Program-made: the position numbers and the translations under genes
The notes under the pieces: model-generated
The model's database searches: none
What the model was told of the DNA's origin: nothing
What the model saw: the letters and a program-made list of their open reading frames with translations, nothing else
Source: Acidimicrobiia bacterium
GTDB lineage: Bacteria > Actinomycetota > Acidimicrobiia > Spongiisociales > UBA11373
Direction: 5' to 3'
DNA: 64,000 nucleotides
NCBI GenBank assembly: GCA_040902765.1
Contig: JBBDWO010000030.1
Location: 1,598-65,597, forward strand
In this document: positions 2,041-21,198 of the stretch, piece by piece
Position numbering within the stretch: position 1 is the stretch's first letter
How the letters are laid out: every line of letters starts with the position of its first letter

Positions 2041-3125
2041 GGTTGTCGGTCATCGAGGTCGATCTCGCCGCGATCCGCCACAACGTCGTGGTGTTCGCCT
2101 CCCTCGTGGCACCGGCGCGGCTCTGCGTGGTGGTCAAGGCTGACGCCTACGGCCACGGCGACGTGCCCGTCGCCGTGGCTGCTGCCGACGCCGGAGCCGA
2201 CCGGCTCGCGGTGGCACTGGTGTCCGAGGGCATCGGGCTGCGCGAGGCCGGCGTCGAGCTACCGATACTCGTGTTGAGCGAGCCCGCTCCTACCGACGCG
2301 GTGGAGTCGGTGCGGTGGCGATTGACCCCCACCGTGTACACGGAGACCTTCATCACGGCCCTCGAGTCGGTCGCTCCGGCAGAATTGGGAGTTCATCTCA
2401 AGGTGGACACCGGCATGCACCGGGTGGGCGCGCCGTTCTCGGCTGCTCCCGACCTGGCGCGTCGGATCGCCAGCGGACCCTTGCGCCTCGAGGGACTCTG
2501 GACGCACTTCCCGGTTGCCGACGAGGACCCGGCCTTCACCTCCACCCAGGTGCGGGCCCTGCGCGAGGTCGAGGCGCGGCTCGCCGCAGACGGCATCTCA
2601 CCCGATGTCGTGCACGCCGCCAATACGGCTGCCGCCATCGGCGACCCGGAGTCCCGGCTGGGCATGGTCCGTATCGGGCTGGGGATCTACGGCCTGCTGC
2701 CGATCCCCGACGCTGCGGTCGACGTCCACCCGGCAATGCGGGTGGTCAGCGGCGTGGCGCACCTGGCGCGACTCCCCGGCGGTGCCCGTCCCTCCTACGG
2801 TCGCCGCCGTCCCCTGGCTCATGAGTCCACGGTGGCGACCGTTCCGATCGGCTATGCCGACGGGGTGCCGAGGCGCCTGTTCGACGCCGGTGGCGAGGTC
2901 CTGATCCGCGGCAACCGGTATCCGTTCGCCGGGATGATCACGATGGACCAGTGCGTGGTCGACGTCGGTGACGATCCGGTGGCGGTTGGCGACGAGGTGG
3001 TGTTGCTTGGTCGTCAGGGCGATGGCGAGATCACGGCGGAGGAGTGGGCGCAGCGCCTGGGGACCATCGTGTGGGAGGTCGTCTGCGGGTTCGGGCCCCG
3101 CCTCCCCCGGCGGTACGTCGGATGA
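2037..3125 (+). CDS. alr: alanine racemase
   Basis: VVKADAYGHGDVPVA is the PLP-lysine motif. There is an AGGAGG RBS 8 nt upstream of GTG 2037. The start is coupled to the nnr stop. Confidence 0.85.
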   Translation: MRLSVIEVDLAAIRHNVVVFASLVAPARLCVVVKADAYGHGDVPVAVAAADAGADRLAVALVSEGIGLREAGVELPILVLSEPAPTDAVESVRWRLTPTVYTETFITALESVAPAELGVHLKVDTGMHRVGAPFSAAPDLARRIASGPLRLEGLWTHFPVADEDPAFTSTQVRALREVEARLAADGISPDVVHAANTAAAIGDPESRLGMVRIGLGIYGLLPIPDAAVDVHPAMRVVSGVAHLARLPGGARPSYGRRRPLAHESTVATVPIGYADGVPRRLFDAGGEVLIRGNRYPFAGMITMDQCVVDVGDDPVAVGDEVVLLGRQGDGEITAEEWAQRLGTIVWEVVCGFGPRLPRRYVG

Positions 3126-4039
3126 CGCTCACGGCGGTTCCCGGTGTTCGCGTGGGCCACTGGACTGATGCGGTCGGGGTGACCGGGGTGACCGTGGTGG
3201 AGCTGCCGGAGCCCAACGTGACCACCGTCGAGGTGCGCGGGGCGGCTCCCGGTTCGCGGGAGACCGCATTGCTGGCACCCGGTATGCGGGTCGAGACCGT
3301 CCAGGCGATCGTTCTCGCCGGGGGTAGCGCTTTCGGTCTCGCCGCCGCCGACGGCGTTACCAGCGCTCTGGCGGCCGCAGGGAGAGGCCATCCGACGATG
3401 GCCGGTCCGGTCCCCATCGTCCCGTCGGCGATCATCTACGACCTGGCCGTGGGGGACCCGACGGCCCGGCCCGGTCCTGCCGAAGGCGCTGCCGCCTACG
3501 GGGCGTGCTCCGCCGATCCCGTTCCCATGGGCAGTGTGGGAGCGGGCACCGGCGCCTGTGTGGCCGGTTGGCGGGGTCGGGAGCACCGACGCAAAGGCGG
3601 TGTGGGATCGCACGCCGTCACCCATGAGGGGACGACGGTGGGGGCGCTCGTGGTGCTCAACGCCGTCGGCGACGCCTTCAGCCTGGAAGGCAAGTCGCTG
3701 ACCGGCGGCGACCTGCTGCCCAGGAGCACCCCGGTGATCCCATCCATCGCCGAGAACACGACGCTGGTCGTGATCACCATCGATGCCGCGGTCGACCGCG
3801 CCGCTCTCAGCAGGCTCTGTGTACAGGGTCACGACGCCCTGGCCGTCTGCCTTCGCCCGAGTCACACCCGATACGATGGCGATGCCGTCTTCGCGGTGTC
3901 CTGTGGCACCCGCGAGGCGGATCTGGATCGTCTGGGGGTGATGGCGTTCGAGGCCGTAGGGCGGTCGATCGAGGCAGCGGTCCGCCAGGCCACGACACTG
4001 GGAGGGATCCCGGCCATCGAATCGGAGGAGTCGTCGTGA
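3122..4039 (+). CDS. S58 family peptidase (DmpA / L-aminopeptidase-like, Ntn-hydrolase fold)
   Basis: [16 protein letters not shown]...GVTVVE...[13 protein letters not shown]...[12 protein letters not shown] matches the DmpA/S58 N-terminal signature. ATG 3122 overlaps the alr stop (ATGA). Confidence 0.55.
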
Positions 4040-4662
4040 ACGAAGCCGGGCTGGCCGAACTCGCCGCCCTGGCCGAACGCGCCTCGGGATGCGTCGACTG
4101 CGGGCTGTCCACCACTCGCACCACGGTCGTGTTCGGCGACGGGTCGCCGGAGGCGGACGTCATGTTCGTCGGCGAGGCGCCCGGGAAGAACGAGGACGAG
4201 CAGGGGCTTCCGTTCGTCGGCGCCGCCGGCAAGCTGCTGGACACGCTGCTCGACGAGATCGGGCTGCGGCGGCAAGACGTGTACATCGCCAACGTGATCA
4301 AGTGTCGTCCACCGAACAACCGGGATCCCCAGCAGGAGGAGATCGACGCCTGCAAGGGCTACCTGCGGTCCCAGATCGCGCTGATCGACCCGTCTGTAGT
4401 GGTGACACTCGGCAACTTCGCCACCAAGCTGCTGCTCAAGCGGGATGTCGGCATCACCCGACTGCGCGGCCAGGTCTACCCATGGTGGAACCGGCAGCTG
4501 GTACCCACCTTTCATCCGGCCGCTGCCCTGCGCGGGGGTCAGCGTGTCCTCGACGACATGCGCCACGACTTCGCCCTGGTCCGCGGGGTGCTGGATGAGG
4601 AAAGCGACGCGACGACATCGCCCGCCCCCGACACCGCCGACCAGCTGGGCCTGTTCGAATGA
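4036..4662 (+). CDS. family 4 uracil-DNA glycosylase (Fe-S type)
   Basis: GEAPG motif [11 protein letters not shown] motif B, and a CVDCGL...C..C cysteine cluster. GTG 4036 overlaps the peptidase stop. Confidence 0.75.
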
Positions 4663-4664
4663 GG

Positions 4665-4767
4665 CGCGATTCGCGATTCGCGATTCTCGGTTCGCAATTC
4701 GCGATACCGGAAGCTTGCCCGACGACGCGCTGTCGATCCCGCGAATCGCGAATCACGAATCACGAAT
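4665..4767. repeat. inverted heptamer arrays with (CGCGATT)x3, CTCGGTT, CGCAATT, CGCGATA at 4665-4706, a 33-nt spacer, then (CGCGAAT)x2 and (CACGAAT)x2 at 4740-4767. The element ends 20 nt before the tsaE ATG.
   Basis: Read from the sequence. Confidence 0.9.
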
Positions 4768-4786
4768 TGCGGAGCGAAGCGACCCC

Positions 4787-5242
4787 ATGAGCGTCTCCCT
4801 CTTGTGTCCCACCGAGGCCGACACCCGTGCGGCAGGTCGCCGCCTCGCCAGCCTGCTGCGGCCCGGTGATGTCGTACTGCTCGCCGGGGACCTGGGGGCG
4901 GGTAAGACGGTGTTCGCCGGTGGGATCGGGGAGGGCCTGGGGGTCGACGAGCCGGTCATCAGCCCCTCCTACATCCTGAGCCGGCGCTACGAGGGGTTCC
5001 TGCCGCTGGTGCACGCCGACATCTACCGCCTCGGGTCTTCTGCGGAGATCGACGATCTCGACCTCCTCGGCGACGCCGCCGACGGGGTCCTGGTGGTCGA
5101 GTGGGGCCATGCTGCCGAGCAGGTGTTTGGTGACGAGCACCTGATGATCCGTATCGAGGTGGTGGAGGACGGTGCTCGCCGGGTTGACCTCGAGCCGCAT
5201 GGTCAGTGGCGTTCTCGGCCGCTCGCGGAGATCGTCTCATGA
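4787..5242 (+). CDS. tsaE: tRNA threonylcarbamoyladenosine biosynthesis ATPase TsaE
   Basis: LLAGDLGAGKT P-loop and YjeE-like length (151 aa). ATG 4787 is preceded by GGAGCGAAG. The ORF-table entry starting at 4445 is an upstream extension through a repeat region. Confidence 0.8.
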   Translation: MSVSLLCPTEADTRAAGRRLASLLRPGDVVLLAGDLGAGKTVFAGGIGEGLGVDEPVISPSYILSRRYEGFLPLVHADIYRLGSSAEIDDLDLLGDAADGVLVVEWGHAAEQVFGDEHLMIRIEVVEDGARRVDLEPHGQWRSRPLAEIVS

Positions 5243-5943
5243 GGATCCTCGCCATCGAGACCGCCACCGCGGCATCGTCCGTCGCCCTCGGTGACGACTC
5301 CGGCGTCGTCGCCATGGCGAGCCTCCTCGACGCCCGGGGTCACGTCGAGTTCGTGATCCCTGCGGTCGAGTTCTGTTTCCATCGCGCCGGGTGGGATCCG
5401 GGGGAACTCGATGCGGTCGCGGTGGATGTCGGTCCCGGGTTGTTCAGCGGCCTCCGTACGGGCCTGGCGACGGCCCAGGCGATCGCCGGAGCCGTCGGGG
5501 TGCCACTGATCCCGGTGGGGTCCCTGGACGCCGTCGCCTTCGACGCCGCCACCGGTCGTCGACGGGTCTGGGCGGTGATCGACGTTCGGCGCGGCGAGGT
5601 GGCGGTGTGCCCGTATCGGCCGGTTCCGGGCGGCGTCGTTCGGGATGGGGCGGTCGAGCTGTGCACACCCGACGAGTTCAGAGGGATGCTCCAGGAGGAC
5701 CGTTCGGACATCCTCGTCGTCGGGGAGCACGCCGCCTTGCCCGAGGGAAGCCTGGTGGGGTTCCACTCCCTCAAGACGGGACGCCCGGAGAACCCGTCGG
5801 CCGCCGCAGTCCTGGCGATCGCTCGCACGCGCTTACTCCGCGGCGACGTTCCCCATCCTGAGGAAGTGCGACCCGCCTACCTCCGAGACCCGGACGTGAC
5901 GATCAACTGGTCCGACTTCAGGTCGGAGGGGCCATGGTCGTGA
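5239..5943 (+). CDS. tsaB: tRNA threonylcarbamoyladenosine biosynthesis protein TsaB (inactive Kae1 homologue)
   Basis: MRILAIETATAASSVAL... is a YeaZ/TsaB N-terminus. ATG 5239 overlaps the tsaE stop (ATGA). Confidence 0.8.
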   Translation: MRILAIETATAASSVALGDDSGVVAMASLLDARGHVEFVIPAVEFCFHRAGWDPGELDAVAVDVGPGLFSGLRTGLATAQAIAGAVGVPLIPVGSLDAVAFDAATGRRRVWAVIDVRRGEVAVCPYRPVPGGVVRDGAVELCTPDEFRGMLQEDRSDILVVGEHAALPEGSLVGFHSLKTGRPENPSAAAVLAIARTRLLRGDVPHPEEVRPAYLRDPDVTINWSDFRSEGPWS

Positions 5944-6431
5944 CCGTTGGCACCATCCGCCCGATGACCACCGCCGACGTGGCTGCCGTGGCCGACCTCG
6001 AGGGCGCTTCCTTCGACATGCCGTGGCCGCCCGAGGTGTTCTTCGAAGAGTTGTCCGCACCGAGCCGCTGGTACCTGGTGGCCGAGTGCGAGCACGGGGT
6101 CACCGCCTACGGCGGGATCATGCTCGTCGACGGCGACGCCCATGTGATGACCATCGCCGTAAGCCCCGATCATCGCCGCAGCGGGGCAGGGTCGCGGATG
6201 CTCATGGCACTCATCGACGCTGCGTTGGAGATGGGGGCGAACGCCATCACCCTCGAGGTGGCGGTGTCGAATCGCCCCGCCATCGCCCTGTACGAGGTTT
6301 TCGGATTCGAAGCCGTGGGTACCCGGCCGGGGTACTACGGCGGGGAGGACGCCCAGATCATGTGGGTGGTGGAGGCGGATGGTCCGAGCTATCGGGACCT
6401 CCTCGACGAGATCCGGGGCAGGTTGTCATGA
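5934..6431 (+). CDS. rimI: ribosomal-protein-alanine N-acetyltransferase RimI (GNAT)
   Basis: GNAT motifs (IAVSPDHRRSGAGSRML) and a conserved position between tsaB and tsaD. Confidence 0.8.
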   Translation: MVVTVGTIRPMTTADVAAVADLEGASFDMPWPPEVFFEELSAPSRWYLVAECEHGVTAYGGIMLVDGDAHVMTIAVSPDHRRSGAGSRMLMALIDAALEMGANAITLEVAVSNRPAIALYEVFGFEAVGTRPGYYGGEDAQIMWVVEADGPSYRDLLDEIRGRLS

Positions 6432-7438
6432 CCGACAGGCCGCTCATCCTGGGCTTCGAGACCTCGTGCGACGAGACCGGGGTCGGCGTCGTCCGGGGCC
6501 ACGAGGTGCTCGCCAACGTGATCGCCTCCCAGGTGGAGGAGCACGCCCGCTTCGGTGGGGTGGTCCCGGAGGTTGCGGCCCGGGCCCACGTCGAGGCGAT
6601 CCGATCGCTGACGCACCGGGCGTTGCGCGACGCCGGCGTGCACTCGACCGACCTCGATGCCATCGCCGCCACACGCGGTCCGGGGCTCGCCGGTGCGCTC
6701 ATGGTCGGATTCGCCTACGGGAAGGCCCTCGCCTGGGCGCTGGAGAGGCCATTCCTTGGTATCGACCACATGGAGGGGCATCTGGTGGCGCCGCGGCTGG
6801 AGGACGATCGGTTCGAGCCGCCGGCCGTGGTCCTCCTGGCCTCTGGTGGGCACAGCCAGATCGTCCATGTCGAAGCGTGGGGGCAGTACCGGACGGTCGG
6901 GTCGACCATCGACGATGCCGCCGGAGAGGCGCTCGACAAGCTGGCCCGGTTCCTCGGCCTCGGGTACCCGGGTGGACCGGCCATCGACCGCGAGGCTCGC
7001 CACGGCGACCCGTCGGCGGTGGCGTTCCCCCGGGCGCTACCGGACCGTCCTTTCGACATGTCGTTCTCGGGTCTCAAGACGGCGGTGATCACCTTCGTGC
7101 GGGAGCACCACCGGGCGGGGACCCTGCCCTCGATCGCCGATCTGGCCGCCTCCATCCAGGAGGCCGTCATCGACGTGCTCGTCGACAAGACGATGAACGC
7201 CGTCGAGGAGACCGGCGCACTGCGAGTCGCCGGCGGCGGCGGTGTCATGTCCAACAGCAGGCTCAGACAGCGGCTGGGCGAGGCGTGTGAGGAGCGGGGG
7301 ATCGACCTGCACCTGCCGTCGCCGCTGCTGTGCACCGACAACGGCGCCATGATCGCCAGCGCCGCGGTCCGTCGGTTCCTCGAGGGTGAGCGAACTCCGT
7401 GGGATTCGGCGATCGACCCGGGGTTGCGATTGGGCTGA
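6428..7438 (+). CDS. tsaD: tRNA N6-adenosine threonylcarbamoyltransferase TsaD (Kae1/Gcp)
   Basis: MTDRPLILGFETSCDETGVGVV...HMEGH is a TsaD signature. ATG 6428 overlaps the rimI stop. Confidence 0.9.
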   Translation: MTDRPLILGFETSCDETGVGVVRGHEVLANVIASQVEEHARFGGVVPEVAARAHVEAIRSLTHRALRDAGVHSTDLDAIAATRGPGLAGALMVGFAYGKALAWALERPFLGIDHMEGHLVAPRLEDDRFEPPAVVLLASGGHSQIVHVEAWGQYRTVGSTIDDAAGEALDKLARFLGLGYPGGPAIDREARHGDPSAVAFPRALPDRPFDMSFSGLKTAVITFVREHHRAGTLPSIADLAASIQEAVIDVLVDKTMNAVEETGALRVAGGGGVMSNSRLRQRLGEACEERGIDLHLPSPLLCTDNGAMIASAAVRRFLEGERTPWDSAIDPGLRLG

Positions 7439-7462
7439 GGTCAGGCTCCAGGCGCCAGCCAG

Positions 7463-7488
7463 GCGAATTGCGAATCGCGAATCGCAAC
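7463..7488. repeat. GCGAATT, (GCGAATC)x2 plus GCAAC, between tsaD and the CIRCE/groES region
   Basis: Read from the sequence. Confidence 0.85.
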
Positions 7489-7551
7489 TTGATATCCCTC
7501 CACTCACATCACCTGCTCCCGTCTGGCACTCTCCCCGGGTGATTGCTAGTG

Positions 7552-7578
7552 TTGGCACTCGGTAGCGACGAGTGCTAG
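7552..7578 (+). promoter_or_regulatory. CIRCE inverted repeat (HrcA operator) upstream of groES
   Basis: TTGGCACTC-N9-GAGTGCTAG compared with the consensus TTAGCACTC-N9-GAGTGCTAA. An extra TGGCACTC half-site lies at 7524-7531. Confidence 0.6.
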
Positions 7579-7603
7579 CGCCATGACAGGAGGAATTCGT
7601 CGT

Positions 7604-9564
<1,961 letters not shown>

Positions 9565-9570
9565 GCGCAG

Positions 9571-9618
9571 CGTTTCGAAACGAACGGTTGAGGGGCGGCC
9601 CACGGGTCGCCCCTCAAC
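9571..9618 (+). terminator. candidate intrinsic terminator after groEL: 12-nt palindrome CGTTTCGAAACG plus an 11-bp GC stem (GTTGAGGGGCG / CGCCCCTCAAC), with no U-tract
   Basis: Perfect inverted repeats immediately 3' of groEL. Confidence 0.45.
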
Positions 9619-9626
9619 GCGTCGTT

Positions 9627-9718
9627 AGTTGCCAGTTGCCAGTTGCCAGTTGCCAGTTGCCGGTCGCCGGTCCCCAGTCTCTTGGGGCGGGGCTCTGGCT
9701 GGTGGCTGATGGCTACTC
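9627..9718. repeat. heptamer arrays: (AGTTGCC)x5 plus GGTCGCC, GGTCCCC (9627-9675), a CCCCA-loop-GGGG hairpin, then GGCTCTG, GCTGGTG, GCTGATG, GCTACTC (9691-9718), which overlaps the stop of the minus-strand GNAT gene
   Basis: Read directly from the sequence. Confidence 0.85.
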
Positions 9719-10318
9719 GCCGAGCCACCCCTCTTCGACATACCGTGGCTGCTCGCGGGGGTACTCGTCGTCGAGGAGGGCCCAGAGGGAGTGGTCCACC
9801 CATTCGCCGCGGACGAGGACTTCACGGCGCAGGACGCCTTCCTGGACGAAACCGAGTTTTTCGGCGATGCGCTCACTCGCCCGGTTGCCCACCGCGATGC
9901 GCAGGGTCACCCGGTGCAGTTCGAGTTCTTCGAAGGCGGCCTGCACCACCCGCGCTCCGGCTTCGGTGGCGATGCCCTGACTGCCGACCGAGGTCCGCAC
10001 CCAGTATCCGATCTCACCCGACTGCTCGCGACGGGAGGTGTGCCACACCGAGATGTTGCCCAGGTGGCGCTCGGGATCGTCGAGGGGGCGGATCGTCATG
10101 TCGAAGGCTCGCCCATCGACCCACGCCGCCGCCGAGTCACGGATGAAACGGAGGGCATCCGCGCGGCGATAGCGGTCGGCTGCCCATGGGAGCCACGGTT
10201 CCAGTTGGGACTTGGATTCGGTGACGGCCTCGAGTAGGGAGTCGAGATCGCGCCGACGAAAGGGCCGCAGCTCCAGTCGTGGCGTGTAGCGCGATTGTGC
10301 GGCCAGCCGTGAAGGCAT
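9713..10318 (-). CDS. GNAT family N-acetyltransferase (RimJ/RimL-like)
   Basis: The PRLELRPF... N-terminal region and Acetyltransf_3-like motifs (IGYWV, RVTLRIAVGNRASERIAEKLGF). Confidence 0.7.
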   Translation of the reverse strand: MPSRLAAQSRYTPRLELRPFRRRDLDSLLEAVTESKSQLEPWLPWAADRYRRADALRFIRDSAAAWVDGRAFDMTIRPLDDPERHLGNISVWHTSRREQSGEIGYWVRTSVGSQGIATEAGARVVQAAFEELELHRVTLRIAVGNRASERIAEKLGFVQEGVLRREVLVRGEWVDHSLWALLDDEYPREQPRYVEEGWLGE

Positions 10319-10331
10319 AGCGAGAAGTTAG

Positions 10332-10395
10332 TCAACGCTCAACGCTCAACGCTCAACGCCTTCACGCTCAACGCTCAACGCTCAACGCTCAACGC
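10332..10395. repeat. (TCAACGC)x4, an 8-nt variant CTTCACGC, then (TCAACGC)x4. The array begins 13 nt upstream of the GNAT start codon.
   Basis: Read directly from the sequence. Confidence 0.9.
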
Positions 10396-10428
10396 CAGAC
10401 TCGTCGAGTACTGCGTTCAGCGTGAAGT

Positions 10429-10535
10429 GTTGAGCGTCTTCTCCTGCGTTGAGCGTTAGGCGTTGAGCGTCTTCTCTGGCGTTGAGCGTTTTCTCCTGCG
10501 TTGAGTGTCTTCTCCTGCGTTGAGCGTTCTTGTCG
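10429..10535. repeat. 19-bp tandem repeat GTTGAGCGTCTTCTCCTGC, about 6 copies (one truncated to 14 nt), in inverted orientation to the upstream TCAACGC array and ending 14 nt before the Nudix start
   Basis: Units at 10429-10447, 10462-10480, 10481-10499, 10500-10518, with variant units between and after. Confidence 0.85.
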
Positions 10536-10548
10536 TATCGTCCTCCCC

Positions 10549-11091
10549 ATGACCGACCTGTGGGCCCCCCTCGCTTCGCTGCCGTCGGTGGCGAGTCCGT
10601 CAGGGGTGCGGGCTGCCGTCCTCGTGCCGATCTATGAGGACGACGGGCGGTTGCGGGTCATCATGACGCAACGGCCTGAGGAAATGCGCAGCCATCCGGG
10701 CGATGTCGTGTTCCCCGGTGGGATGATCGAACCAGGTGACGCCGACCCGATCGCTTGCGCCATCAGGGAGGCTTCCGAGGAGGTGGGACTCCCGGCCCGC
10801 AACGTCATCGAGATCCTGGGCGGTCTCAGCCCGGTGAACACCCGGTCGGTGACGATGAAGATCGTCCCCGTGGTCGCCCGGGTGGAACGCCCCGCCGAAC
10901 TGGTGCCGCAGCCCGACGAAGTCGCCGCCATCTTCGAGCCGAGCATCGACGAGCTGCTCGACGACGATGCCTGGCGCACCACCGACTGGGGCGGTCGCAC
11001 CATGTGGTTCTACGAATTCCCCAACGCGGTGCTGTGGGGAGCCACCGCGTTCATGGTGCGAGACCTGTTGGAGTACTTCAGGAACGCGTAG
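10549..11091 (+). CDS. Nudix hydrolase (CoA pyrophosphatase-like)
   Basis: Nudix box GGMIEPGDADPIACAIREASEEVGL. The UPF0035/NudL-like context motif LVPI...DG.L.VIMTQR is present. I chose ATG 10549 because the ORF-table start at 10501 lies inside the 19-bp repeat. Confidence 0.65.
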   Translation: MTDLWAPLASLPSVASPSGVRAAVLVPIYEDDGRLRVIMTQRPEEMRSHPGDVVFPGGMIEPGDADPIACAIREASEEVGLPARNVIEILGGLSPVNTRSVTMKIVPVVARVERPAELVPQPDEVAAIFEPSIDELLDDDAWRTTDWGGRTMWFYEFPNAVLWGATAFMVRDLLEYFRNA

Positions 11092-11180
11092 TAACGCTCA
11101 ACGCAAGAGAAGACGCTCAACGCCTAACGCTCAACGCCAGATCTGGCGAGTCCTGCGTTGAGCGTTGAGCGTTGAGCGTC
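11092..11180. repeat. TCAACGC-family hairpin element with left units TAACGC, TCAACGC, ...ACGCTCAACGC, CTAACGC, TCAACGC, the loop AGATCTGGCGAGTCCT, and right units (GCGTTGA)x3
   Basis: Read from the sequence. It lies between the convergent Nudix and arsC 3' ends and starts at the Nudix TAG stop. Confidence 0.85.
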
Positions 11181-11186
11181 GGCCCC

Positions 11187-11594
11187 TTAACGGAGCGCGT
11201 CGAACTCCTTCAACAACGCTTTCACACGCTCTTTGATCTCATCCCTGAGCGGGCGGATGTCCTCGAGGGGTAGGCCCGAGGGGTCGTCCAGTTCCCAGTC
11301 GCGGTAGACGACGCCGGGGAAGTAGGGACACTCGTCTCCGCAGCCCATGGTGACCACGACGTCGGCGTCGCCGATGACGTCGTCGGTCCACTTCGCTGGC
11401 TTCGTCTCCGACATGTCGATGCCGACCTCGAGCATGGCGGCAACCGCACTGGGATTGACATGGGCGCCGGGATCGGACCCACCGGAGAACACCTCTACCC
11501 GGTCGCCGCCCAACTCCCGAGCGAACGCCGCAGCCATCTGCGATCGCCCTGCGTTGTGGACGCAAAGGAAGACGATGCGGGGCGTGGCGGTCAC
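11187..11594 (-). CDS. arsC: arsenate reductase / low-molecular-weight protein-tyrosine-phosphatase family (thioredoxin-coupled ArsC type)
   Basis: The CVHNAGRS P-loop (Cx5R), the downstream Cys pair GCGDECP and a length of 135 aa. Confidence 0.65.
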   Translation of the reverse strand: MTATPRIVFLCVHNAGRSQMAAAFARELGGDRVEVFSGGSDPGAHVNPSAVAAMLEVGIDMSETKPAKWTDDVIGDADVVVTMGCGDECPYFPGVVYRDWELDDPSGLPLEDIRPLRDEIKERVKALLKEFDALR

Positions 11595-11617
11595 AGGCGC
11601 GATTGTCCCACGCGCGA

Positions 11618-11680
11618 GAACGCTTAACGCTCAACGCTCAACGCTCAACGCAAGAGAGGGTGAGTCTGGCGTTGAGCGCT
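11618..11680. repeat. TCAACGC-family element with GAACGC, TTAACGC and (TCAACGC)x3, then AAGAGAGGGTGAGTCTGG, then GCGTTGAGCG. GGGTGAG...CTCACCC flanks the right arm.
   Basis: Read from the sequence. Confidence 0.85.
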
Positions 11681-11733
11681 CACCCCCTAAGCGTCTGCAA
11701 GGCAACGATGACCGTCTCACTAGGTTCTCCTTG

Positions 11734-12438
11734 CTACGCGCCCCACCACGCCACGAACAGCGGTGCCAGCGCGATGGCCGGCAGCATGTTCGCCACCCTG
11801 ACCTGCTTCAGGTCGAGGAGGCGCAGCGCAATGCCGAGCAGCAATATCCCGCCGGCCGTTGCCAGGGCATCGATCATCGGGTCGGTGAGGAGTCCGTCGA
11901 GCGCTCCTCCGGCGACGGCCAGGCCGCCCTGGACGACGGCGACGGTCATCGCCGCCAGTGCCACCCCCCACCCGTAGACGGCGGCAAAGGCGATCGAGGC
12001 GAATCCGTCGAGCGCCGCCTTCACCAGCAGCATCTCGTGATCTCCGAGCCCGTCGCGGATGGACCCGACGACGGTGAGCGGTCCCACGCAGAACACCAGA
12101 GAGGCGAGGACGAAGCCTTCGCTGAACCTCCGCTGGCCGCCTCCGGAGAGGTCTTCGGACGAGACTCGTGATTGGAGGAACCGGCCGAAGCGCTCCAATC
12201 CCTGTTCGATCCGCAGGCTCTCTCCCAGGAGCACACCGACGAGGACGGCGGCGATGACGAGCGGGAATTCGCCGGTGGCCATCGTCTCGCGAATCCCGAG
12301 TGCGGCGGTGATGAGGCCGAGCGTTGCCATCAGGGTGGTGCGGAACCGCTCGGGGAAGCGACTGCCGGCGACGGCTCCTATGGCACCCCCGACGAGCACG
12401 GTCACGACGTTCACCAGGGTGCCGATCGGGAGGCTCAT
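11734..12438 (-). CDS. DUF554-family integral membrane protein (YqgA-like)
   Basis: About 234 aa and polytopic hydrophobic. ATG 12438 overlaps the stop of the upstream gene (ATGA). The longer 414-aa ORF-table entry is a frame-read-through artefact. Confidence 0.45.
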   Translation of the reverse strand: MSLPIGTLVNVVTVLVGGAIGAVAGSRFPERFRTTLMATLGLITAALGIRETMATGEFPLVIAAVLVGVLLGESLRIEQGLERFGRFLQSRVSSEDLSGGGQRRFSEGFVLASLVFCVGPLTVVGSIRDGLGDHEMLLVKAALDGFASIAFAAVYGWGVALAAMTVAVVQGGLAVAGGALDGLLTDPMIDALATAGGILLLGIALRLLDLKQVRVANMLPAIALAPLFVAWWGA

Positions 12439-13517
12439 CGTCGTCCCTCCAGGGCTGCCGTCGCCTCGAAGCGCACCCGGAAGTCCTCGTCGACGGCGGC
12501 GAGGATCATGGTCTCCTCGCTCGGGCCGATGCCGAGGGCGGCGATCGCCTTTACCGCACGCCAGCGGGTCCACGCGTCGGTGTCGAAGACGGCTTCCTCG
12601 AAGAGGGGTCGGAACGCATCGTCCTCCCGGTCGGCTGCGGCATCCACGGCGGCTCGTCGCACCATCCGGGTCGGATCCCGGTAGCCGGTGACGATGGCCG
12701 CGGTGGCCACCGCCTCGTCCCCGGACAGCGCCAGGGTGACGACGGCTGCCCGGCGTCGCCTCGGCTCCGACGAGGCGAGCGCCTCGACCAGCGTCTGCTG
12801 TTGCGGCTGGTCGTCGGGGTCCATCAGGTGCAGATCCTCGGCGCGGATGGGCGTCGTGTGACGACGTCCCGCCTCCTCGAGCAGCTGTTCCCGGGTGCGA
12901 ACCGGGGGAGTGCCTGCGTCGCCGATCCAGAACAGCTCGGTGACCCGTTCGAGGACGTCGTCGAGTCGCTCCTCCCAATCGGCCGACGGGCGCAGCCCGA
13001 CGGTGACGAAGTCACCGGCCACCATCACGTCCGACACGTCCTCGTCGTCCATGAGGGCGCGGACCCGCTCGTCCTCGACGTCCTCGCCTCGGCGATGCCA
13101 GACACCCGGGGCGGGGGTCCCGCCGACGGTGAATTTGATCTTGCGGGGATGCGGCGTCTGCTCGGGTCGGACCGGCCCGGAGAACGCCCGTTGGAACAGG
13201 GTCGTCATGCTGGGTGGCTCCCCGGTCACGGCCAGGGTGTAGCGGCCGTCGCGGATCCCGTGCTCCAGCGTGAGGCCATGGCCGAGGTCGTGGACCCACC
13301 ATCCTTCGGAGAGGTGCGGAGTCACCAGGTTGCTGAGCCGCTCGGCGTCGTTCTCATCCCACGGAGCGTGTGAGAAGAACCGCTTGAGTGCTGACTTCAG
13401 CGCCACCACCCCCTCGAACGGCAGCTGGACGGCCACCGTCTCCGTGAGGTGCGCCGATGCGGCGGCGACCAATTCCAGTTCGGCGACGGCGGCGCGGGGC
13501 TCGGTTCCGGCGGACAC
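12435..13517 (-). CDS. virulence-factor/Nfu_N-like domain protein with C-terminal HEAT-like repeats (CvfC-like)
   Basis: The N-terminal ...ALKRFFSHAPWDENDAERL...KIKFTV region resembles Nfu_N / virulence-factor domains. The C-terminal AAVDAA...WRAVKAIAALG... resembles PBS-lyase HEAT repeats. This rests on my recall of these families and no search was run. Confidence 0.35.
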   Translation of the reverse strand: MSAGTEPRAAVAELELVAAASAHLTETVAVQLPFEGVVALKSALKRFFSHAPWDENDAERLSNLVTPHLSEGWWVHDLGHGLTLEHGIRDGRYTLAVTGEPPSMTTLFQRAFSGPVRPEQTPHPRKIKFTVGGTPAPGVWHRRGEDVEDERVRALMDDEDVSDVMVAGDFVTVGLRPSADWEERLDDVLERVTELFWIGDAGTPPVRTREQLLEEAGRRHTTPIRAEDLHLMDPDDQPQQQTLVEALASSEPRRRRAAVVTLALSGDEAVATAAIVTGYRDPTRMVRRAAVDAAADREDDAFRPLFEEAVFDTDAWTRWRAVKAIAALGIGPSEETMILAAVDEDFRVRFEATAALEGRR

Positions 13518-13584
13518 TCGGGCATGTTGGCACGATCACGGATGGCAGTCGGCCGCGAAGCGGCCGGTCTACCCTGCGGCCCTC

Positions 13585-14559
13585 ATGGAACGCAAGACCG
13601 CTTTTTCCGGCCTGCAGCCCACGGGCAACATCCACGTGGGCAACTACCTGGGTGCCCTGCGCAACTGGGTGCGGCTTCAGGAGGAGTACGACTGCATCTA
13701 TTGCATCGTCGATCTTCACGCCATCACACAGGACTACGACACCGGCGCATTCGCCAAGGAGCGCCAGGGGGCCGCCAAGGTCCTGATCGCCTGTGGCGTC
13801 GACCCCGAGAGGTCGCTGTTCTACTACCAGAGCCAGGTGCCCCAGCACACCGAGCTGGCGTGGATCCTCGGCACGATCACCGGAACCGGTCAGCTCGCTC
13901 GCATGACCCAGTACAAGGACAAGGCCGACGACTCGGGCTCCAATCTTGGCCTGTTTGCCTACCCGGTCCTCATGGCCGCCGACATCCTCCTCTACAGGGC
14001 GCACGCGGTGCCGGTCGGAGAGGATCAGAAGCAGCACCTGGAGTTGACCCGCGACCTCGCCGAGCGCTTCAACCATCGCTTTGGTGACGAGTTCCCGATC
14101 CCCGAGCCGATCATCCCCGAGGTCGGGGCTCGGATCATGTCGCTCCAGGATCCCACCCAGAAGATGTCGAAGTCGGACCCGGACGAGTCGAGCCGCATCC
14201 TCGTGCTCGACAGCCCGGACGAGGTCCGCGCCAAGCTGAAGCGGGCCGTCACCGACTCGGAGACCGAGGTCCGGTTGGACTGGGAGAACAAGCCCGGCGT
14301 GTCCAATCTGCTCGAGATCATGTCGCTGTTCACCGGCAGGCCGATCGCCGACCTCGAGACCGAGTTCGGGAGGGGCGGATACGGCAAGTTCAAGGAGGCG
14401 GTTGCCGAGGCGGTGATCGACGGGCTGGCGCCGATTCGCGCTCGACACCGGGAACTCGCCGACGCCGACGTCGATCGGATCATGCAGCGCGGTGCTCTTG
14501 ACGCTCGCACCCGAGCCGAAGGCTTCCAACAGCGGGTGCGCAAGCTCGTCGGCCTCTGA
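13585..14559 (+). CDS. trpS: tryptophan--tRNA ligase
   Basis: The class I signatures FSGLQPTGNIHVGNYLGA (HIGH) and KMSKS. I chose ATG 13585. The ORF-table start at 13270 adds a non-homologous leader that overlaps the divergent gene. Confidence 0.9.
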   Translation: MERKTAFSGLQPTGNIHVGNYLGALRNWVRLQEEYDCIYCIVDLHAITQDYDTGAFAKERQGAAKVLIACGVDPERSLFYYQSQVPQHTELAWILGTITGTGQLARMTQYKDKADDSGSNLGLFAYPVLMAADILLYRAHAVPVGEDQKQHLELTRDLAERFNHRFGDEFPIPEPIIPEVGARIMSLQDPTQKMSKSDPDESSRILVLDSPDEVRAKLKRAVTDSETEVRLDWENKPGVSNLLEIMSLFTGRPIADLETEFGRGGYGKFKEAVAEAVIDGLAPIRARHRELADADVDRIMQRGALDARTRAEGFQQRVRKLVGL

Positions 14560-14677
14560 CCGGTAACCAGCCTCCAGACACCGGCGGCGGTAGTGCGGGT
14601 TCTGGAGCGCCAGGGCACGGTCTGCAGGAGGCACACATCGCCGGCGTCACTACATTCCCTGGAGAAGGCGAGGTGCC

Positions 14678-16141
14678 ATGGTGGATTGGCGAGACGAGGA
14701 TCCCGGTCTCCCGATCAAGCTCGGCCCCGTCTCCAACGGCGAGTTCCTACCGGAGCCGCTCTCACCGACCGTCACCGAGGCTCTGCGCGCGGCGCGGGCG
14801 CAGTGTGATCGGGCTGCCGACAGGCTCAGCATCGACCGTCGCGAGTTTCTCAAGATGGCAGCTGCTTCCGCGATCACCCTCTACTTCCTCGACCGTTTCA
14901 CGTCCAGAGCCGAGGCGCATCCGGGCGGTCGCTTCGTCATACCCCGGGATGCCCTCTGGGAGCCTGCGGCTGCTGAGGTCCGGCTCTCCGGTGACGAATT
15001 CATCATGGACGTGCAGGGCCACCTGTTGGAGTACGACCTGAATCCGGCGACCAGGGGCCGCCGCTTTTGGGGAAGCCAGTTTCCACAGGTGAACTGTGGG
15101 GACGACGACCCCAGGGCCTGTTTCTCGATGACGCACTTCATGGAGGAGATGTTCCTGCGGTCCGACACGTCGATGGCGGTGGTGTCCGCCTTGCCCATCC
15201 ACCCGGAAGGGAGCCCGCTGCCGATCGAGGTGATGGACGAGACCCGCCGGGTCGCCCTCGGGCTCAGCCGTGACGACCGGATCCTGCTCCATGCCCAGGC
15301 ACTACCCCAGGTGGGCAACATCGACGCGACGCTCGAGGAGATGGAGGCGACGGCCGCTCGATATCCGGTCGCCGGCTGGAAGACCTTCACTCACTTTCGT
15401 GATCCGCAGACCGGCAACCGGTTCTGGCTCGACGACCACGAGTCCGGGATGCCGTTCGTCGGGCGATCCTTCATCGAGAAGTCGCTGGAGTTGGGGATCA
15501 ACATCATCTGTGTCCACAAGGGCTTGTCGGGTGGAGACCGCTACGCCTCGCCGGTGGACATCGGTGCCGTCGCTCGCGACTACCCGGACATGAACTTCGT
15601 CGTCTACCACTGCGGGTTCGAGGTGTCGGTCTCAGAGGGCCCGTATACCGAGTCGACGCGTGATGTGGGGGTCAACCGGTTCATCTCCTCGCTCGTCGAC
15701 AACGGGATCGGGCCGGGTAGCAACGTGTATGGCGAGTTGGGCTCGACCTGGTGGTACCTGATGCGGACCCCGACGCAGGCCGCGCACGTTCTCGGGAAGC
15801 TGCTCACCTACCTGGGCGAGGACCGAATCCTTTGGGGCACCGACTCGATCTTCTATGGCTCGCCCCAGGATCAGATCGAGGCGATGCGGGCTTTCGAGAT
15901 CACGCCGTCCTTCCGCGATCGGTACGAGTACCCGAAGCTGACGCCCTACGTGAAACGCAAGATCTTCGGTCTCAGTGCCGCTGATCTGTATGGGGTCGAG
16001 CCGGAGCGCCGGTGGTGGTCGTTCGACCGAGATGACATTCGCGACCTGCGGCGGACCTTCCCCGACGGGAACAAGCCATGGGGGCCAGCGACCATCGAGG
16101 AATTCCGGCGCTTTCACGAGTATCACCAGGGGTGGGCCTAA
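14678..16141 (+). CDS. amidohydrolase-2 (TIM-barrel metal-dependent hydrolase) family protein with a twin-arginine signal peptide
   Basis: DRREFLKMAAASAITLY is a Tat motif. Amidohydrolase-like H/D motifs are present (VHKG..., HCGF, WGTDS). GGAGAAGG lies upstream of ATG 14678. Confidence 0.55.
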   Translation: MVDWRDEDPGLPIKLGPVSNGEFLPEPLSPTVTEALRAARAQCDRAADRLSIDRREFLKMAAASAITLYFLDRFTSRAEAHPGGRFVIPRDALWEPAAAEVRLSGDEFIMDVQGHLLEYDLNPATRGRRFWGSQFPQVNCGDDDPRACFSMTHFMEEMFLRSDTSMAVVSALPIHPEGSPLPIEVMDETRRVALGLSRDDRILLHAQALPQVGNIDATLEEMEATAARYPVAGWKTFTHFRDPQTGNRFWLDDHESGMPFVGRSFIEKSLELGINIICVHKGLSGGDRYASPVDIGAVARDYPDMNFVVYHCGFEVSVSEGPYTESTRDVGVNRFISSLVDNGIGPGSNVYGELGSTWWYLMRTPTQAAHVLGKLLTYLGEDRILWGTDSIFYGSPQDQIEAMRAFEITPSFRDRYEYPKLTPYVKRKIFGLSAADLYGVEPERRWWSFDRDDIRDLRRTFPDGNKPWGPATIEEFRRFHEYHQGWA

Positions 16142-16213
16142 CGGCATGCCGTCGCTGGTCTCGTTCCTGGAGCCCAGGGCCTCGGGCCCGTGGCCCGGAG
16201 TAACCTCTGCGCC

Positions 16214-17371
16214 ATGGACGTCGAGATCGGGATCGGGAAGGTGGGTCGTCGGGCATGGGGCCTCGACGACATTGCCATCGTTCCCAGCCGCCGCACCCGG
16301 GACCCCGATGACGTCGACATCTCGTGGGAGGTGGACGCCTACACCTTCGACCTCCCGTTCTTGGGTTCGGCGATGGATTCGGCGATCAGCCCGGCGACCG
16401 CCGTGCAGATCGGTCGGCTCGGCGGTGTGGGGGTCCTCAACCTCGAAGGGTTGTGGACCCGGTACGCCGATCCCGAACCGCTCCTGGATGAGATCGCGGC
16501 GTTGCCCGCCGACAAGGCGACCCGCCGGATGCAGGAGATCTACCTGGAGCCGATCGATCCCGACCTGATCACCGAGCGCATCGCCGAGATGAAGAAGAGC
16601 GGCGTGGTCACCGCGGCAAGCCTCACGCCGCAGCGTGTCGCCGAGTACGCCCCGACGACGGTGAAAGCCGGGTTGGACCTGCTCGTCATCCAGGGAACCG
16701 TGGTGTCCGCGGAGCACGTGTCCACCCGCAGCGAGCCCCTCAACCTCAAGGAGTTCATCGCCGACTTCGACCTCCCTGTGATCGTGGGCGGCTGCGCCTC
16801 GTTCTCCACCGCCTTGCACCTGATGCGGACCGGGGCCGTGGGGGTTTTGGTGGGGGTGGGACCGGGGGCGGCGTGCACCACCCGTGGCGTCCTCGGCGTC
16901 GGGGTTCCACAGGCGACAGCCATCGCCGATGCCGCAGGAGCCAGGATTCGCTACCTCGATGAGACCGGTCGGTATGTCCATGTCATCGCCGACGGCGGTA
17001 TGCGCACCGGTGGGGACATCGCCAAGGCGATCGCCTGCGGAGCCGATGCGGTGATGCTGGGCTCGCCGATCGCTGCCGCCACCGAAGCCCCGGGGCGGGG
17101 TTTCCACTGGGGGATGGCGGCCTTCCATCCCACCCTGCCGAGAGGCACCCGCGTCGAGGTGGGCGACCTGGGCACCCTCGAGGAGATCCTGGTGGGGCCC
17201 GCCCACGAGAATGACGGCCGCCGGAACCTGTTCGGTGGGCTCAGGGTGTCGATGGCCACCACCGGCTATGCCGATCTCAAGGAGTTCCAGAAGGCCGAGG
17301 TGATGGTCGCCCCGGCCCTCCGGACCGAGGGGAAGAGCCTCCAGCGTGATCAGCGCGTCGGCATGGGTTGA
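16214..17371 (+). CDS. IMP dehydrogenase-family protein lacking CBS domains (GuaB3-like)
   Basis: An IMPDH/GMP-reductase barrel ([23 protein letters not shown]) with no CBS pair. It sits immediately upstream of guaA, as in the actinobacterial guaB2-guaB3-guaA order. Confidence 0.6.
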
Positions 17372-18914
17372 CCGGTTCGTGCCGACCAGCCAACGGGTCC
17401 TCGTCGTCGACTTCGGTGCCCAATACGCCCAGCTGATCGCCCGACGCGTGCGCGAGGCCCGCGTCTTCTCGGAGATCGTCCCCCGGGAGGTGACGGCAGC
17501 TGAGGTGGAGGCGGCGGCACCGATCGCCATCATCCTGTCCGGCGGCCCTGCCTCGGTCTACGCCGACGATGCCTACCGGCTCGATCCCGGGATATTCGAC
17601 CTCGGCATCCCGGTCATGGGCATCTGTTACGGCCACCAGGTGATCGCCGACACCCTCGGCGGCACGGTGGAGCGCACCGACGCGGCCGAGTTCGGTCGAA
17701 CGCCGATCACCGTCGCCGACCGGACCGGGCTGTTCTCGGGGCTACCCGCCGCCCACGAGGTGTGGATGAGCCACCGGGACGCCGTGGTGAGACCCCCCGA
17801 CGGGTTTACCGTCACCGCGGCGACGCCGGGGTCTCCGGTAGCCGCCATGGAGTCTGTGGGCCGCCGGATCGTCGGTGTGCAGTTCCACCCCGAGGTGGCG
17901 CACAGCCCTCATGGTCAGGCGGTGCTGGAGCGCTTCCTCTACGACGTGTGCGGTGCGTCGCCGTCATGGACCGCGGAGTCGATCGTGGACCAGGCGGTGG
18001 CTCGGGTCGCCGCCCAGGTCGGCGACGCCGAGGTGATCTGTGCGCTTTCGGGCGGCGTCGACTCGGCTGTGGCCGCGGCGATCGTCCATCGCGCCGTCGG
18101 CGATCGTCTCACCTGTGTCTTCGTCGATCACGGTCTGTTGCGCGAGGGTGAGCGGGCACAGGTGGAGGCGGCCTTTCGTGCGGCGCTCGACGTGCCCCTG
18201 GAGGTGGTCGACGCGTCGGACCGCTTCATCGATGCGCTCGCCGGTGTCACCGACCCCGAGGAGAAGCGCCGCATCGTCGGGGAGGCCTTCATCAGGGTGT
18301 TCGAGGAGTTCGCGCGACGGCACCGCGGCGCTCGCTTCCTGGTCCAGGGCACGCTTTATCCCGATGTCATCGAGTCGGGGAGCCGGGATGCGGCCCGGAT
18401 CAAGAGCCACCACAACGTCGGGGGGCTGCCCGAGGACATGGACTTCGAGCTCGTGGAGCCGCTGCGTGACCTGTTCAAGGACGAGGTACGGGCCGCCGGC
18501 GAGGAGCTCGGCCTACCGGAGGCCATGGTGTGGCGGCAGCCCTTCCCGGGTCCCGGTCTCGCGGTGAGGATCATCGGCGAGGTGACCCGTGAGCGTCTCT
18601 CCATCCTGCGTGCTGCCGACGCAATCGTCACCGAGGAGATCCGCAAGGCGGGGCTGGAACGCGAGGTGTGGCAGGCGTTCGGGGTCCTTCCGGCGATTCG
18701 GTCCGTGGGCGTCCAGGGGGATACCAGGACCTACGCCCATCCGCTCATCCTGCGGGCGGTGTCCTCCGAGGACGCCATGACCGCAGACTGGGTGCGGCTG
18801 CCCTACGAGGTGCTGGAAGCGATCTCGTCGAGGGTGATCAACGAGGTAGACGGGATCAACCGGGTGGCCTACGACATCTCGTCGAAGCCGCCGGCGACGA
18901 TCGAGTGGGAATAG
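17346..18914 (+). CDS. guaA: GMP synthase (glutamine-hydrolysing)
   Basis: An N-terminal GATase domain ([17 protein letters not shown]) and a C-terminal ATP-PPase domain (SGGVDSAV), with a full-length 522-aa product. The start codon is uncertain and could be GTG 17346 or a later codon. Confidence 0.9.
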
Positions 18915-18915
18915 G

Positions 18916-18946
18916 CGCGATACGCGAATCGCGAATCGCGAATTGC
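18916..18946. repeat. (CGCGAAT)x3.5 array starting 1 nt after the guaA TAG stop, followed by the GC palindrome GCCGCGGC
   Basis: Read from the sequence. Confidence 0.85.
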
Positions 18947-19021
18947 GGTGCCGCGGCGGCTTGTCTCAAGGCGCCGCGTGCCACGCCGATACCCTGACGA
19001 GTGGTAGTCCGAGGTAATCCC

Positions 19022-21037: not shown

Positions 21038-21045
21038 CGCTGGTC

Positions 21046-21141: not shown

Positions 21142-21198
21142 AGCGCTCAAATCACAGCCCGGTGATTCGAGCCATACCCCCGCCCTAAACTCTTTCTC

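Follow-up and report, generated by a model that had tools for sequence, protein, structure and literature searches.

Intergenic GCGAAT arrays of an Acidimicrobiia genome as probable members of a family of hypervariable heptanucleotide repeat hairpins

We analyzed a 64,000-nucleotide (nt) stretch from an Acidimicrobiia bacterium (lineage UBA11373; assembly GCA_040902765.1, contig JBBDWO010000030.1, positions 1,598 to 65,597), hereafter called the window, in which short (GCGAATN)n arrays occur in the gaps that precede tsaE, groES, a cheA-like gene, pcrA, mdh and a gene for a UPF0182 protein. We conclude, with a probability of about 0.7, that these arrays belong to one family of hypervariable heptanucleotide repeat hairpins and are not gene-specific regulators, so that any function would be a generic one. 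Alignments of orthologous gaps show that entire heptads are added to or lost from the arrays, a pattern characteristic of slipped-strand mispairing. The same comparison shows that, at a given gap, one array can give way to another, arise anew or disappear while the proteins diverge by a few percent. Copying from arm to arm or from locus to locus could keep the arms complementary and could spread families to neighboring gaps. If there is a function, it is probably that of a hairpin of the repetitive extragenic palindromic (REP) kind, placed between cistrons or at 3′ ends and acting on mRNA stability or read-through.

GCGAAT arrays and their positions

The GCGAAT arrays reported by the first-pass annotation are real. 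When up to one mismatch is allowed, GCGAATNGCGAAT matches the window 23 times, against 0.25 matches expected from shuffled sequences, and none of 100 shuffles reached 23. At all six named loci the motif lies on the plus strand, on the side of the downstream plus-strand gene, as had been described. Pfam supports the gene names that had been given for TsaE (4787-5242), TsaD (6428-7438), a CheA-like kinase with Hpt, HATPase, CheW and REC domains (approximately 19112-21037), PcrA (21199-23382), Mdh (29655-30593) and UPF0182 (60738-63638).

Three of the six arrays, those at tsaE (4740), pcrA (21115) and UPF0182 (60657), each serve as the 3′ arm of an inverted pair of the form (CGCGATT)n-spacer-(GCGAATN)n, in which the partner arm lies 35-45 nt upstream. 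In the first pair (hairpin A), a 5′ arm of approximately six CGCGATT units (4665-4705) begins 2-3 nt past the UDG stop codon (4662). Its 3′ arm (4740-4771) consists of two CGCGAAT units, two CACGAAT units and a terminal TGCG, i.e., four to five (C)GCGAAT units, and ends approximately 19 nt from the tsaE ATG at 4787. The 5′ arm of hairpin D (21044-21072) begins 6 nt past the stop codon of the CheA-like gene, and its 3′ arm (21115-21146) ends 53 nt from the pcrA start at 21199. In hairpin F, the 5′ arm (60579-60613) begins on the final base of the upstream stop codon and the 3′ arm (60657-60687) ends 51 nt from the UPF0182 ATG.

The only solo GCGAAT arrays are the other three, all on the plus strand in tandem gaps between plus-strand genes. 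One is a (GCGAATY)3 array (7463-7485) between the tsaD stop codon (7438) and the groES regulatory module. Another, ahead of cheA (18916-18948), is a near-solo (GCGAATN)3 array with one CGCGATA unit in front; it starts 1 nt past the guaA stop codon (18914) and is followed by a G+C-rich hairpin. The third is a (GCGAATT)3 array in the icd-mdh gap (29607-29634), followed by the ribosome binding site (RBS) GGAAGGAG at 29641-29648 and a TTG start codon at 29655. The gaps that hold these three belong to a window in which 73% of the genes are on the plus strand (43 plus, 16 minus).

The arrays had been described as sitting directly upstream of gene starts. This is accurate for tsaE (approximately 19 nt) and mdh (approximately 22 nt to the TTG), whereas the other four end 51-164 nt away. 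The distances from the upstream stop codon to the element (its 5′ arm, where there is one) are 2, 24, 1, 6, 79 and 0 nt for tsaE, groES, cheA, pcrA, mdh and UPF0182, respectively; five of the six elements are thus 0-24 nt from the preceding stop, compared with 19-164 nt from the following start.

Turnover of arrays at orthologous gaps

We compared orthologous gaps in relatives of known TsaD identity to the window, in particular L209 (95%), L217 (90%) and L214 (87%). Five contigs from five samples encode identical TsaD proteins, 95% identical to that of the window, and carry an (ACGCTTC)n/(GCGTGAA)n hairpin in the tsaD-groES gap. The 5′ arm of this hairpin has approximately 5, 8, 9, 9 and 11 units in the five contigs while the 3′ arm is constant, and all the indels among them are multiples of 7. 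One arm reaches 11 units while its partner stays at 4, so full-length pairing is not maintained. The arrays 3′ of groEL likewise vary between strains (15 vs. 11 units).

The same tsaD-groES gap documents replacement of one family by another, as the window has a solo GCGAAT array where the relatives with 95% TsaD identity have the hairpin. In both, the groES regulatory module is kept with its RBS. This module contains two inverted repeats (7523-7578, plus strand), which resemble the established consensus of the CIRCE element (controlling inverted repeat of chaperone expression): a perfect TGGCACTC-N9-GAGTGCTA and a weaker, imperfect TGGCACTC-N9-GATTGCTA. Conservation of both repeats in the relatives implies putative control of groES by HrcA. 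As the family was swapped while the CIRCE/RBS module was conserved, the solo array lies outside the conserved control region and is replaceable. A distance of 37 nt separates it from the first CIRCE-like repeat, on the downstream side, and by this argument it is probably upstream of the promoter.

The UDG-tsaE gap shows creation or loss of an element. The two genes are separated by 110-124 nt with a GCGAAT hairpin in the window (4655-4792) and in the 95% relatives, in which the hairpin fills the entire gap up to the tsaE ATG. The GCGAAT hairpin is missing at 87-90% TsaD identity: in the 90% group the gap is 76 nt and holds a solo (AGCGTGC)5 array (L217:6581-6670), and in the 87% group the genes overlap and leave no gap (L214:8340-8380). 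In this comparison, repeat DNA alone gave rise to the UDG-tsaE gap, inside what had been an operon junction.

Hairpin F is present in L201, whose adjacent gene has 91% nucleotide identity, with units and loop altered. In L202 (75% identity), other heptads occupy the same gaps. No arrays were found at the compared gaps in L203 and L204 (76% relatives) or in the more distant L208, and one or two arrays occur in other relatives of 68-70% identity. The window, L201, L202 and L209 can be classed as array-rich, and L203, L204, L208 and L217 as array-poor. The L201 contig, of a 95% relative, begins within the 5′ arm of hairpin F (L201:1-27); such arrays may fragment short-read assemblies.

Heptad arrays across the window

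Many heptad families besides GCGAAT are present. A period scan detected 33 arrays of period 7; although coding sequence makes up 90% of the window, 31 of them lie between genes. Periods 5 and 8-12 gave 0-1 arrays, and periods 4 and 6 gave 12 and 4, respectively, none of them intergenic. Tandem Repeats Finder also lists many period-7 arrays. Heptad arrays occupy 19 of the 34 gaps of at least 50 nt. The other units include ACGCTCA/TGAGCGT, AGCAATT/AGCTGGT, AGCTATT/GCCAATA, CCGTTWC/GGTAACS, CGAGTAG, GCTACCG, ACGGGTA and CCGGTAG. No G3 tract occurs in the units (GCGAATN, ACGCTCA, GCCAATA, GCTGGTA and others), and there is no G-quadruplex unit of the GGGNATC type.

The abundance of heptads appears to be specific to this lineage. 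Array density is 24 per 64 kb in the window, against approximately zero in 80 other actinobacterial pcrA loci. These loci include that of the nearest GTDB relative by PcrA (L001, 70% identity), which has no arrays; its upstream region is not syntenic, and it gave no information on orthologous gaps. The TsaD of the window is identical to protein MEX2323934.1 of a metagenome-assembled genome, and the nearest UPF0182 homologs bear Acidimicrobiia names.

Most arrays form inverted pairs and some are solo. A typical element consists of a pyrimidine-richer arm of 3-10 heptads, the sequence C(C/A)(A/G)GA, a spacer of 10-45 nt, the sequence TCT(T/G)G and a complementary purine-richer arm. The 6.5 kb of gaps and the 57.5 kb of coding sequence each contain 13 copies of the inner unit C[CA][AG]GA...TCT[TG]G, an enrichment in gaps of approximately ninefold; in reverse order it is found only twice in gaps. 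It is common to hairpins built from different heptads, for example at 11651-11669, 21069-21103, 26556-26580 and 32048-32080, and further sites are at 37060-37078, 37168-37187, 58808-58849 and 60613-60656. Beyond this short palindrome, arms and loops vary from family to family. The inner unit thus points to a possible common core or common origin of the families.

A core palindrome of this kind raises the possibility that the elements are small and non-autonomous mobile elements, related in type to REP sequences and bacterial interspersed mosaic elements (BIMEs) or to miniature inverted-repeat transposable elements, that inserted in gaps and whose flanks later grew as heptads. Such an origin would fit the gap-enriched inner unit and the recurrence of one family at several unlinked gaps with arm order fixed (GCGAAT at six loci, ACGCTCA in six hairpins). 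It would also fit the tendency of adjoining gaps toward one heptad family in common, the occupation of one gap by different families in the window and the 95% relatives, and the appearance of a hairpin between UDG and tsaE, which overlap each other in the 87% relative. However, neither the window, which contains only ordinary housekeeping genes, nor the relatives retrieved for comparison encode a transposase, a REP-associated tyrosine transposase (RAYT) or a reverse transcriptase. We recognized no target-site duplications and no terminal inverted repeats distinct from the heptads, loops differ widely within a family, and the changes seen between strains are gain or loss of units, not insertion or excision. 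We therefore regard mobility as doubtful but worth keeping in view, and it would not be exclusive of a family of repeat hairpins that evolves by slippage.

Orientation of the arrays

The first-pass annotation held that a polarity this consistent would be unexpected for a palindrome and thus indicated a strand-specific role. That argument fails at the three paired loci, where an inverted repeat reads alike on both strands. The GCGAAT arm faces the downstream gene there because the family has the order ATTCGC arm then GCGAAT arm, which is the same on either strand. Furthermore, (GCGAATC)n is identical to its own reverse complement at 6 of 7 positions (GAATCGC vs. GATTCGC), so that orientation hangs on one base per unit. 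All six GCGAAT loci are in tandem gaps between plus-strand genes, and the window contains no minus-strand test case.

Arrays of minus-strand genes had been predicted to carry the complement. In L214, a solo (CGCGATT)n array between minus-strand genes does read GCGAAT in the sense of the flanking genes. Over all lineages, solo arrays in tandem gaps, this one among them, are purine-richer on the sense strand in 9 cases and not in 3, a modest polarity based on few arrays that lack phylogenetic independence. We also tried a generalized consensus, GCNRRTA, to orient all the arrays, and rejected it because it had been fitted post hoc to the arrays it was meant to orient and many units are near-symmetric; the purine content of solo arrays was used instead.

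In metagenome contigs (L081-L160, 39-70% GC), (GCGAATA/G)n arrays are common, often alongside GTGAGTA and GCGAGTA. All 20 paired (GCGAATR)n loci in the metagenomes are ordered GCGAAT then ATTCGC, opposite to the order in the window, so proximity of GCGAAT to the downstream gene is not a property of the motif. Metagenomic arrays that have no strict partner arm read GCGAAT in sense in 3 cases and antisense (ATTCGC) in 12. We do not use these numbers as a measure of solo polarity, as at least 6 of 10 such "solo" arrays have a degenerate partner arm and the organisms are unrelated; the bias mostly shows which arm of a degenerate pair survives better. Heptad hairpins seem, from these contigs, to be far more widespread than the literature suggests.

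The role first proposed was that of a 5′-untranslated-region RNA motif or a promoter-proximal protein-binding array, i.e., a strand-specific cis-regulatory element of the downstream gene. GCGAAT does face the downstream gene at 6 of 6 loci, the solo arrays of the window are purine-rich in sense (6 of 6), the L214 minus-strand array conforms, and the 3′ arm abuts the tsaE ATG in the 95% relatives. There is also a precedent in Beggiatoaceae, in which TAACTGA heptamers in forward orientation closely precede start codons (PMC4679880). However, the distribution among gaps of at least 50 nt points elsewhere. Of the tandem gaps, 13 of 21 contain arrays, as do 4 of 5 convergent gaps and only 2 of 8 divergent ones. 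No gene starts in a convergent gap, so the arrays located there show that acting as a promoter or leader cannot be their general role. The orientation of 3 of the 6 loci is uninformative because they are palindrome arms, and the downstream genes are functionally unrelated. The groES array is replaced at 95% identity and sits upstream of a conserved CIRCE module, relatives at 87-90% identity lack the tsaE hairpin, and copy number varies between strains. The opposite arm order and the 3 vs. 12 count of the metagenomes also speak against such a role, as do the paired loci, which fold about equally on both strands. We consider it highly improbable.

Folding and the upstream gene

Hairpins A, D and F are long imperfect hairpins on both strands, with z-scores from -2.0 to -4.9. 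Their folding energies on the plus and minus strands are -52.8 and -60.0 kcal/mol (A), -53.0 and -48.4 kcal/mol (D) and -57.8 and -52.4 kcal/mol (F). Such elements can fold as imperfect hairpins of 25-50 bp on either strand. The solo GCGAAT arrays have no significant structure (z-scores of -0.8 to -1.8). A scan of positions 4000-23000 found no canonical terminator at any array and no match to a consensus promoter, T-runs are absent after the 3′ arms, and Rfam 15 gave no matches over the whole window at the gathering score. We also considered the balance of G.U and A.C pairs as a sign of strand-specific RNA selection, and abandoned it because neither folds nor arm alignments gave a consistent advantage to the plus strand in gaps between plus-strand genes.

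The third option of the first-pass annotation, a terminator upstream of the next gene, is compatible with the data when stated as a generic hairpin that may follow the upstream gene. In a stronger form, the hairpins would be factor-independent or factor-assisted terminators, insulators or 3′-end stabilizers of the upstream mRNA. Their positions suit this, as most elements begin within approximately 25 nt of the upstream stop codon and some overlap it, and the stems are long and stable. Gaps that hold a gene 3′ end have arrays more often (17 of 26) than divergent gaps (2 of 8), a difference that is not significant (Fisher p = 0.10). The stems are not followed by a T-run, the terminator scan was empty at arrays, two large hairpins are in divergent promoter gaps (10330-10527 and 33470-33558), and hairpin A is located inside the UDG-tsaE junction, which was formerly translationally coupled. 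An arm of 11 units opposite one of 4, where full pairing is not maintained, and solo arrays that do not fold significantly are also difficult to reconcile with a dedicated structure of this kind, which we judge unlikely.

Observations beyond slippage

Several observations weigh against slippage as a complete explanation. Slippage alone does not account for the strong preference for 7 nt in this lineage only, for the complementarity kept between arms, for the constant order in which the pyrimidine-richer arm comes first in every pair of the window, or for the inner unit common to families. All six solo arrays in tandem gaps of the window are purine-rich (of the 3′-arm type) on the sense strand, a polarity that hints at a real strand-linked constraint. 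In addition, the hairpin at 26527-26615 pairs via 12 G.U pairs on the plus strand and much more weakly on the minus strand. It is the sole hairpin that is clearly specific to the plus strand, as RNA-level selection at that locus would predict.

These features prompt the idea that some protein or process peculiar to this lineage handles single-stranded nucleic acid, in reading or in writing it, one heptad at a time, with a polarity relative to replication or transcription. The exclusive preference for period 7, its restriction to this lineage, the constant arm order and the solo polarity would follow. The plus strand is probably the leading strand, given that GC skew is mostly positive along the stretch and that this strand carries 43 of the 59 genes; for the same reason, the directions of transcription and replication are confounded in the window. 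CspB-type proteins bind one heptamer per protein according to work cited in PMC4679880. No candidate protein was identified in this case, however, and the units vary greatly in sequence. The polarity is based on low counts without phylogenetic independence, and there are exceptions to arm order and solo polarity in close relatives (L209 10811/10948; L202 5127/5174). A process of this general type appears distinctly improbable.

A more specific version, which we likewise hold improbable, is a clade-specific process in heptad register (a protein, or a step coupled to replication or transcription that advances 7 nt at a time) that would seed elements from GC(C/A)(A/G)GA...TCT(T/G)GC. It would build arms with the pyrimidine-richer one first and leave solo arrays purine-richer in the sense or leading orientation. 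If it exists, the polarity would be the visible trace of a new system that generates or reads repeats, and not of passive slippage. The fixed arm order, the common inner unit and the solo polarity are small observations that the favored explanation leaves unexplained, and it is because simple slippage does not explain them that we keep the mobile-core and heptad-register models alive at low probability.

Other heptad elements and neighboring features

Hairpins of the (ACGCTCA)n/(TGAGCGT)n family recur in the window. The one in the divergent GNAT/NUDIX gap (10330-10527) is complex and includes a 19-nt composite repeat; on its 3′ arm (10429-10527) the 19-nt unit GTTGAGCGTCTTCTCCTGC, which contains TGAGCGT, is present in approximately 5.5 copies as a higher-order repeat. 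Others are in the convergent NUDIX/LMWPc gap (11095-11182) and, with a single TGAGCGT unit, in a tandem gap between minus-strand genes (11618-11680). Three more (37034-37100, 37142-37215 and 37655-37718) are found, together with CCAGCTA and GTAGCNG arrays, in the gap after sdhB. This gap of 770 nt (37022-37791) contains no confident gene, and its minus-strand open reading frame (ORF) at 37222-37662 has no Pfam match.

Among the remaining paired elements, a (CCGTTWC)n/(GGTAACS)n hairpin lies 3′ of mgtC (24044-24106), and the plus-strand-specific hairpin at 26527-26615 is an (AGCAATT)n/(AGCTGGT)n element whose 5′ arm forms the last five codons of sucD, including the stop codon. An (AGCTATT)n/(GCCAATA)n hairpin is located in the convergent HU/SCP2 gap (32018-32118), and an (AGCNATT)n/(GCCAATA)n hairpin at 58769-58888 contains the stop codon of the upstream gene in its 5′ arm. 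An imperfect (GGCAGAR)n/(YTCTGCY)n hairpin occupies the divergent DHDPS/sdhC gap (33470-33558). In a convergent gap at 47575-47667, (GCTACCG)n is followed by (CGGTTGA)n, and these arms are diverged and pair poorly.

Direct arrays, all on the plus strand, are also present. At 28185-28290 there are composite arrays, (CGAGTAG)4, (AAGTACC)4 and GCCAATT-like units, the first of which contains the folD stop codon. At 50404-50481 a (GCTSRTA/GCTCATG)n array that contains the moaE stop codon is followed by (ACGGGTA)n. A (CCGGTAA/CGGGTAA) array (45376-45399) codes for the final residues and stop codon of a PhoP-like regulator. A degenerating solo (AGTTGCC)5 array (9624-9679) follows a terminator-like G+C hairpin of groEL in a convergent gap, and a solo (CCGGTAG)5 array (63813-63851) lies downstream of UPF0182.

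In five genes, the stop codon and the last three to seven codons are inside a heptad array: SucD (26527-26541), FolD (28185-28207), the PhoP-like regulator (45376-45397), MoaE (50404-50419) and a PDZ/Lon_C protein (58769-58779). Stop-bearing units may be tolerated at gene ends, since three copies of a 7-nt unit that bears TAG or TAA are enough to close all reading frames. The Chi octamer of Escherichia coli, GCTGGTGG, has an exact match inside the (GCTGGTA)n arm at 26585-26615. It occurs only once and other units are unlike Chi, so we regard the match as a probable coincidence and rejected a link to Chi sites.

Relatives contributed further observations. In L202, two composite arrays of three heptad blocks each (L202:246-413 and 2057-2147) are in mirror order around a 1.6-kb gene for a Scy/DivIVA-like protein, forming a giant inverted repeat with the whole gene as its "loop." An ORF of 213 amino acids (aa) in L217 (9343-9984), between tsaD and groES, is collagen-like (GXY) and has a periodicity of 9/18 nt; it is not in the window or in the 95% or 87% relatives. 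The window ORF between alr and UDG (3044-4039, 331 aa) is probably the Peptidase_S58 gene found in L214 and L217, and in L209 alr adjoins UDG with no gene between.

Implications

For annotation, these tracts should not be taken as regulatory motifs of tsaE, mdh, pcrA, groES or other genes. Heptad hairpins can be expected to interrupt short-read assemblies, to displace the ends of genes and to pass for "conserved" motifs in a single genome. More than half of the gaps carry heptads and unit numbers differ between co-existing strains, so the clade is a clean natural system for asking why 7-nt units are the favored long simple repeats of bacteria. The arrays could also provide strain-typing markers for this uncultured lineage.

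Comparison with known repeat systems

REP sequences and BIMEs of Enterobacteria and Pseudomonas have a conserved palindrome of 20-40 nt, are associated with a RAYT transposase, lack 7-nt periodicity and can stabilize upstream mRNA. The window elements are likewise imperfect palindromes in gaps, often paired, found within operons and right after stop codons, and present in many copies. They differ in having a 7-nt periodicity and in that no RAYT was found in the window or the fetched relatives. The MIRU-VNTR loci of mycobacteria (mycobacterial interspersed repetitive units, variable-number tandem repeats) consist of direct-repeat units of 46-101 bp with small ORFs that preserve translational coupling. 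They resemble the arrays described here as tandem repeats of strain-variable copy number in intercistronic operon gaps of an actinobacterium, but the latter have 7-nt units and form hairpins. Intrinsic (Rho-independent) terminators have a G+C-rich stem, a loop of 3-8 nt and then a T-run. The heptad hairpins share with them a stable stem-loop just 3′ of a stop codon; unlike them, they have imperfect stems of 25-50 bp, long loops and no T-run, and they also occur in divergent gaps.

A search of the literature for Acidimicrobiia heptamers and for the exact repeat strings returned nothing relevant. Long heptanucleotide simple sequence repeats (SSRs) of prokaryotes, as summarized in PMC4679880 and PMC4692102 from Mrazek et al. 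(2007), favor a length of 7, are mostly non-coding and lineage-specific, and have been attributed to slippage. The window arrays agree with these, and with the short tandemly repeated repetitive (STRR) heptamers of cyanobacteria, in being 7 nt, mostly non-coding, lineage-specific and unstable in copy number. Paired hairpin-forming arms and multi-family diversity set them apart from the direct arrays of the SSR surveys, so far as those are described there (Mrazek et al., 2007). The TAACTGA direct repeats of Beggiatoaceae involve one unit, are almost never inverted and end approximately 1 nt before start codons (MacGregor, 2015; PMC4679880). Both systems are intergenic heptamers with stops in all frames, for which an orientation bias to the downstream start has been reported; the window arrays, in contrast, are mostly inverted pairs that abut stop codons and lie at variable distances from starts.

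The closest described systems are the inverted GGGAATC arrays of Xanthomonas and heptanucleotide SSRs generally, including those of cyanobacteria. Xanthomonas GGGAATC heptamers are intergenic, with approximately 180 per genome and 70-75 convergent inverted pairs per genome able to form stem-loops (PMC4692102). They occur beside housekeeping genes, including groES, differ in length and sequence between close species while position is kept, and neither strand is favored in their transcripts (Rehm et al., 2015; PMC4692102). The window arrays are similar in being intergenic, in having inverted heptamer pairs able to form stem-loops and in lying near housekeeping genes, including groES. Whereas the Xanthomonas arrays are built from one G-rich unit that could form G-quadruplexes, the window has many unrelated units that contain no G-tracts, arrays in more than half of its gaps, an inner palindrome common to families and turnover of families at 95% protein identity, and its host belongs to another phylum, the Actinomycetota (class Acidimicrobiia). 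The Acidimicrobiia case stands out for the density of its arrays, the number of its unit families and the speed of their turnover.

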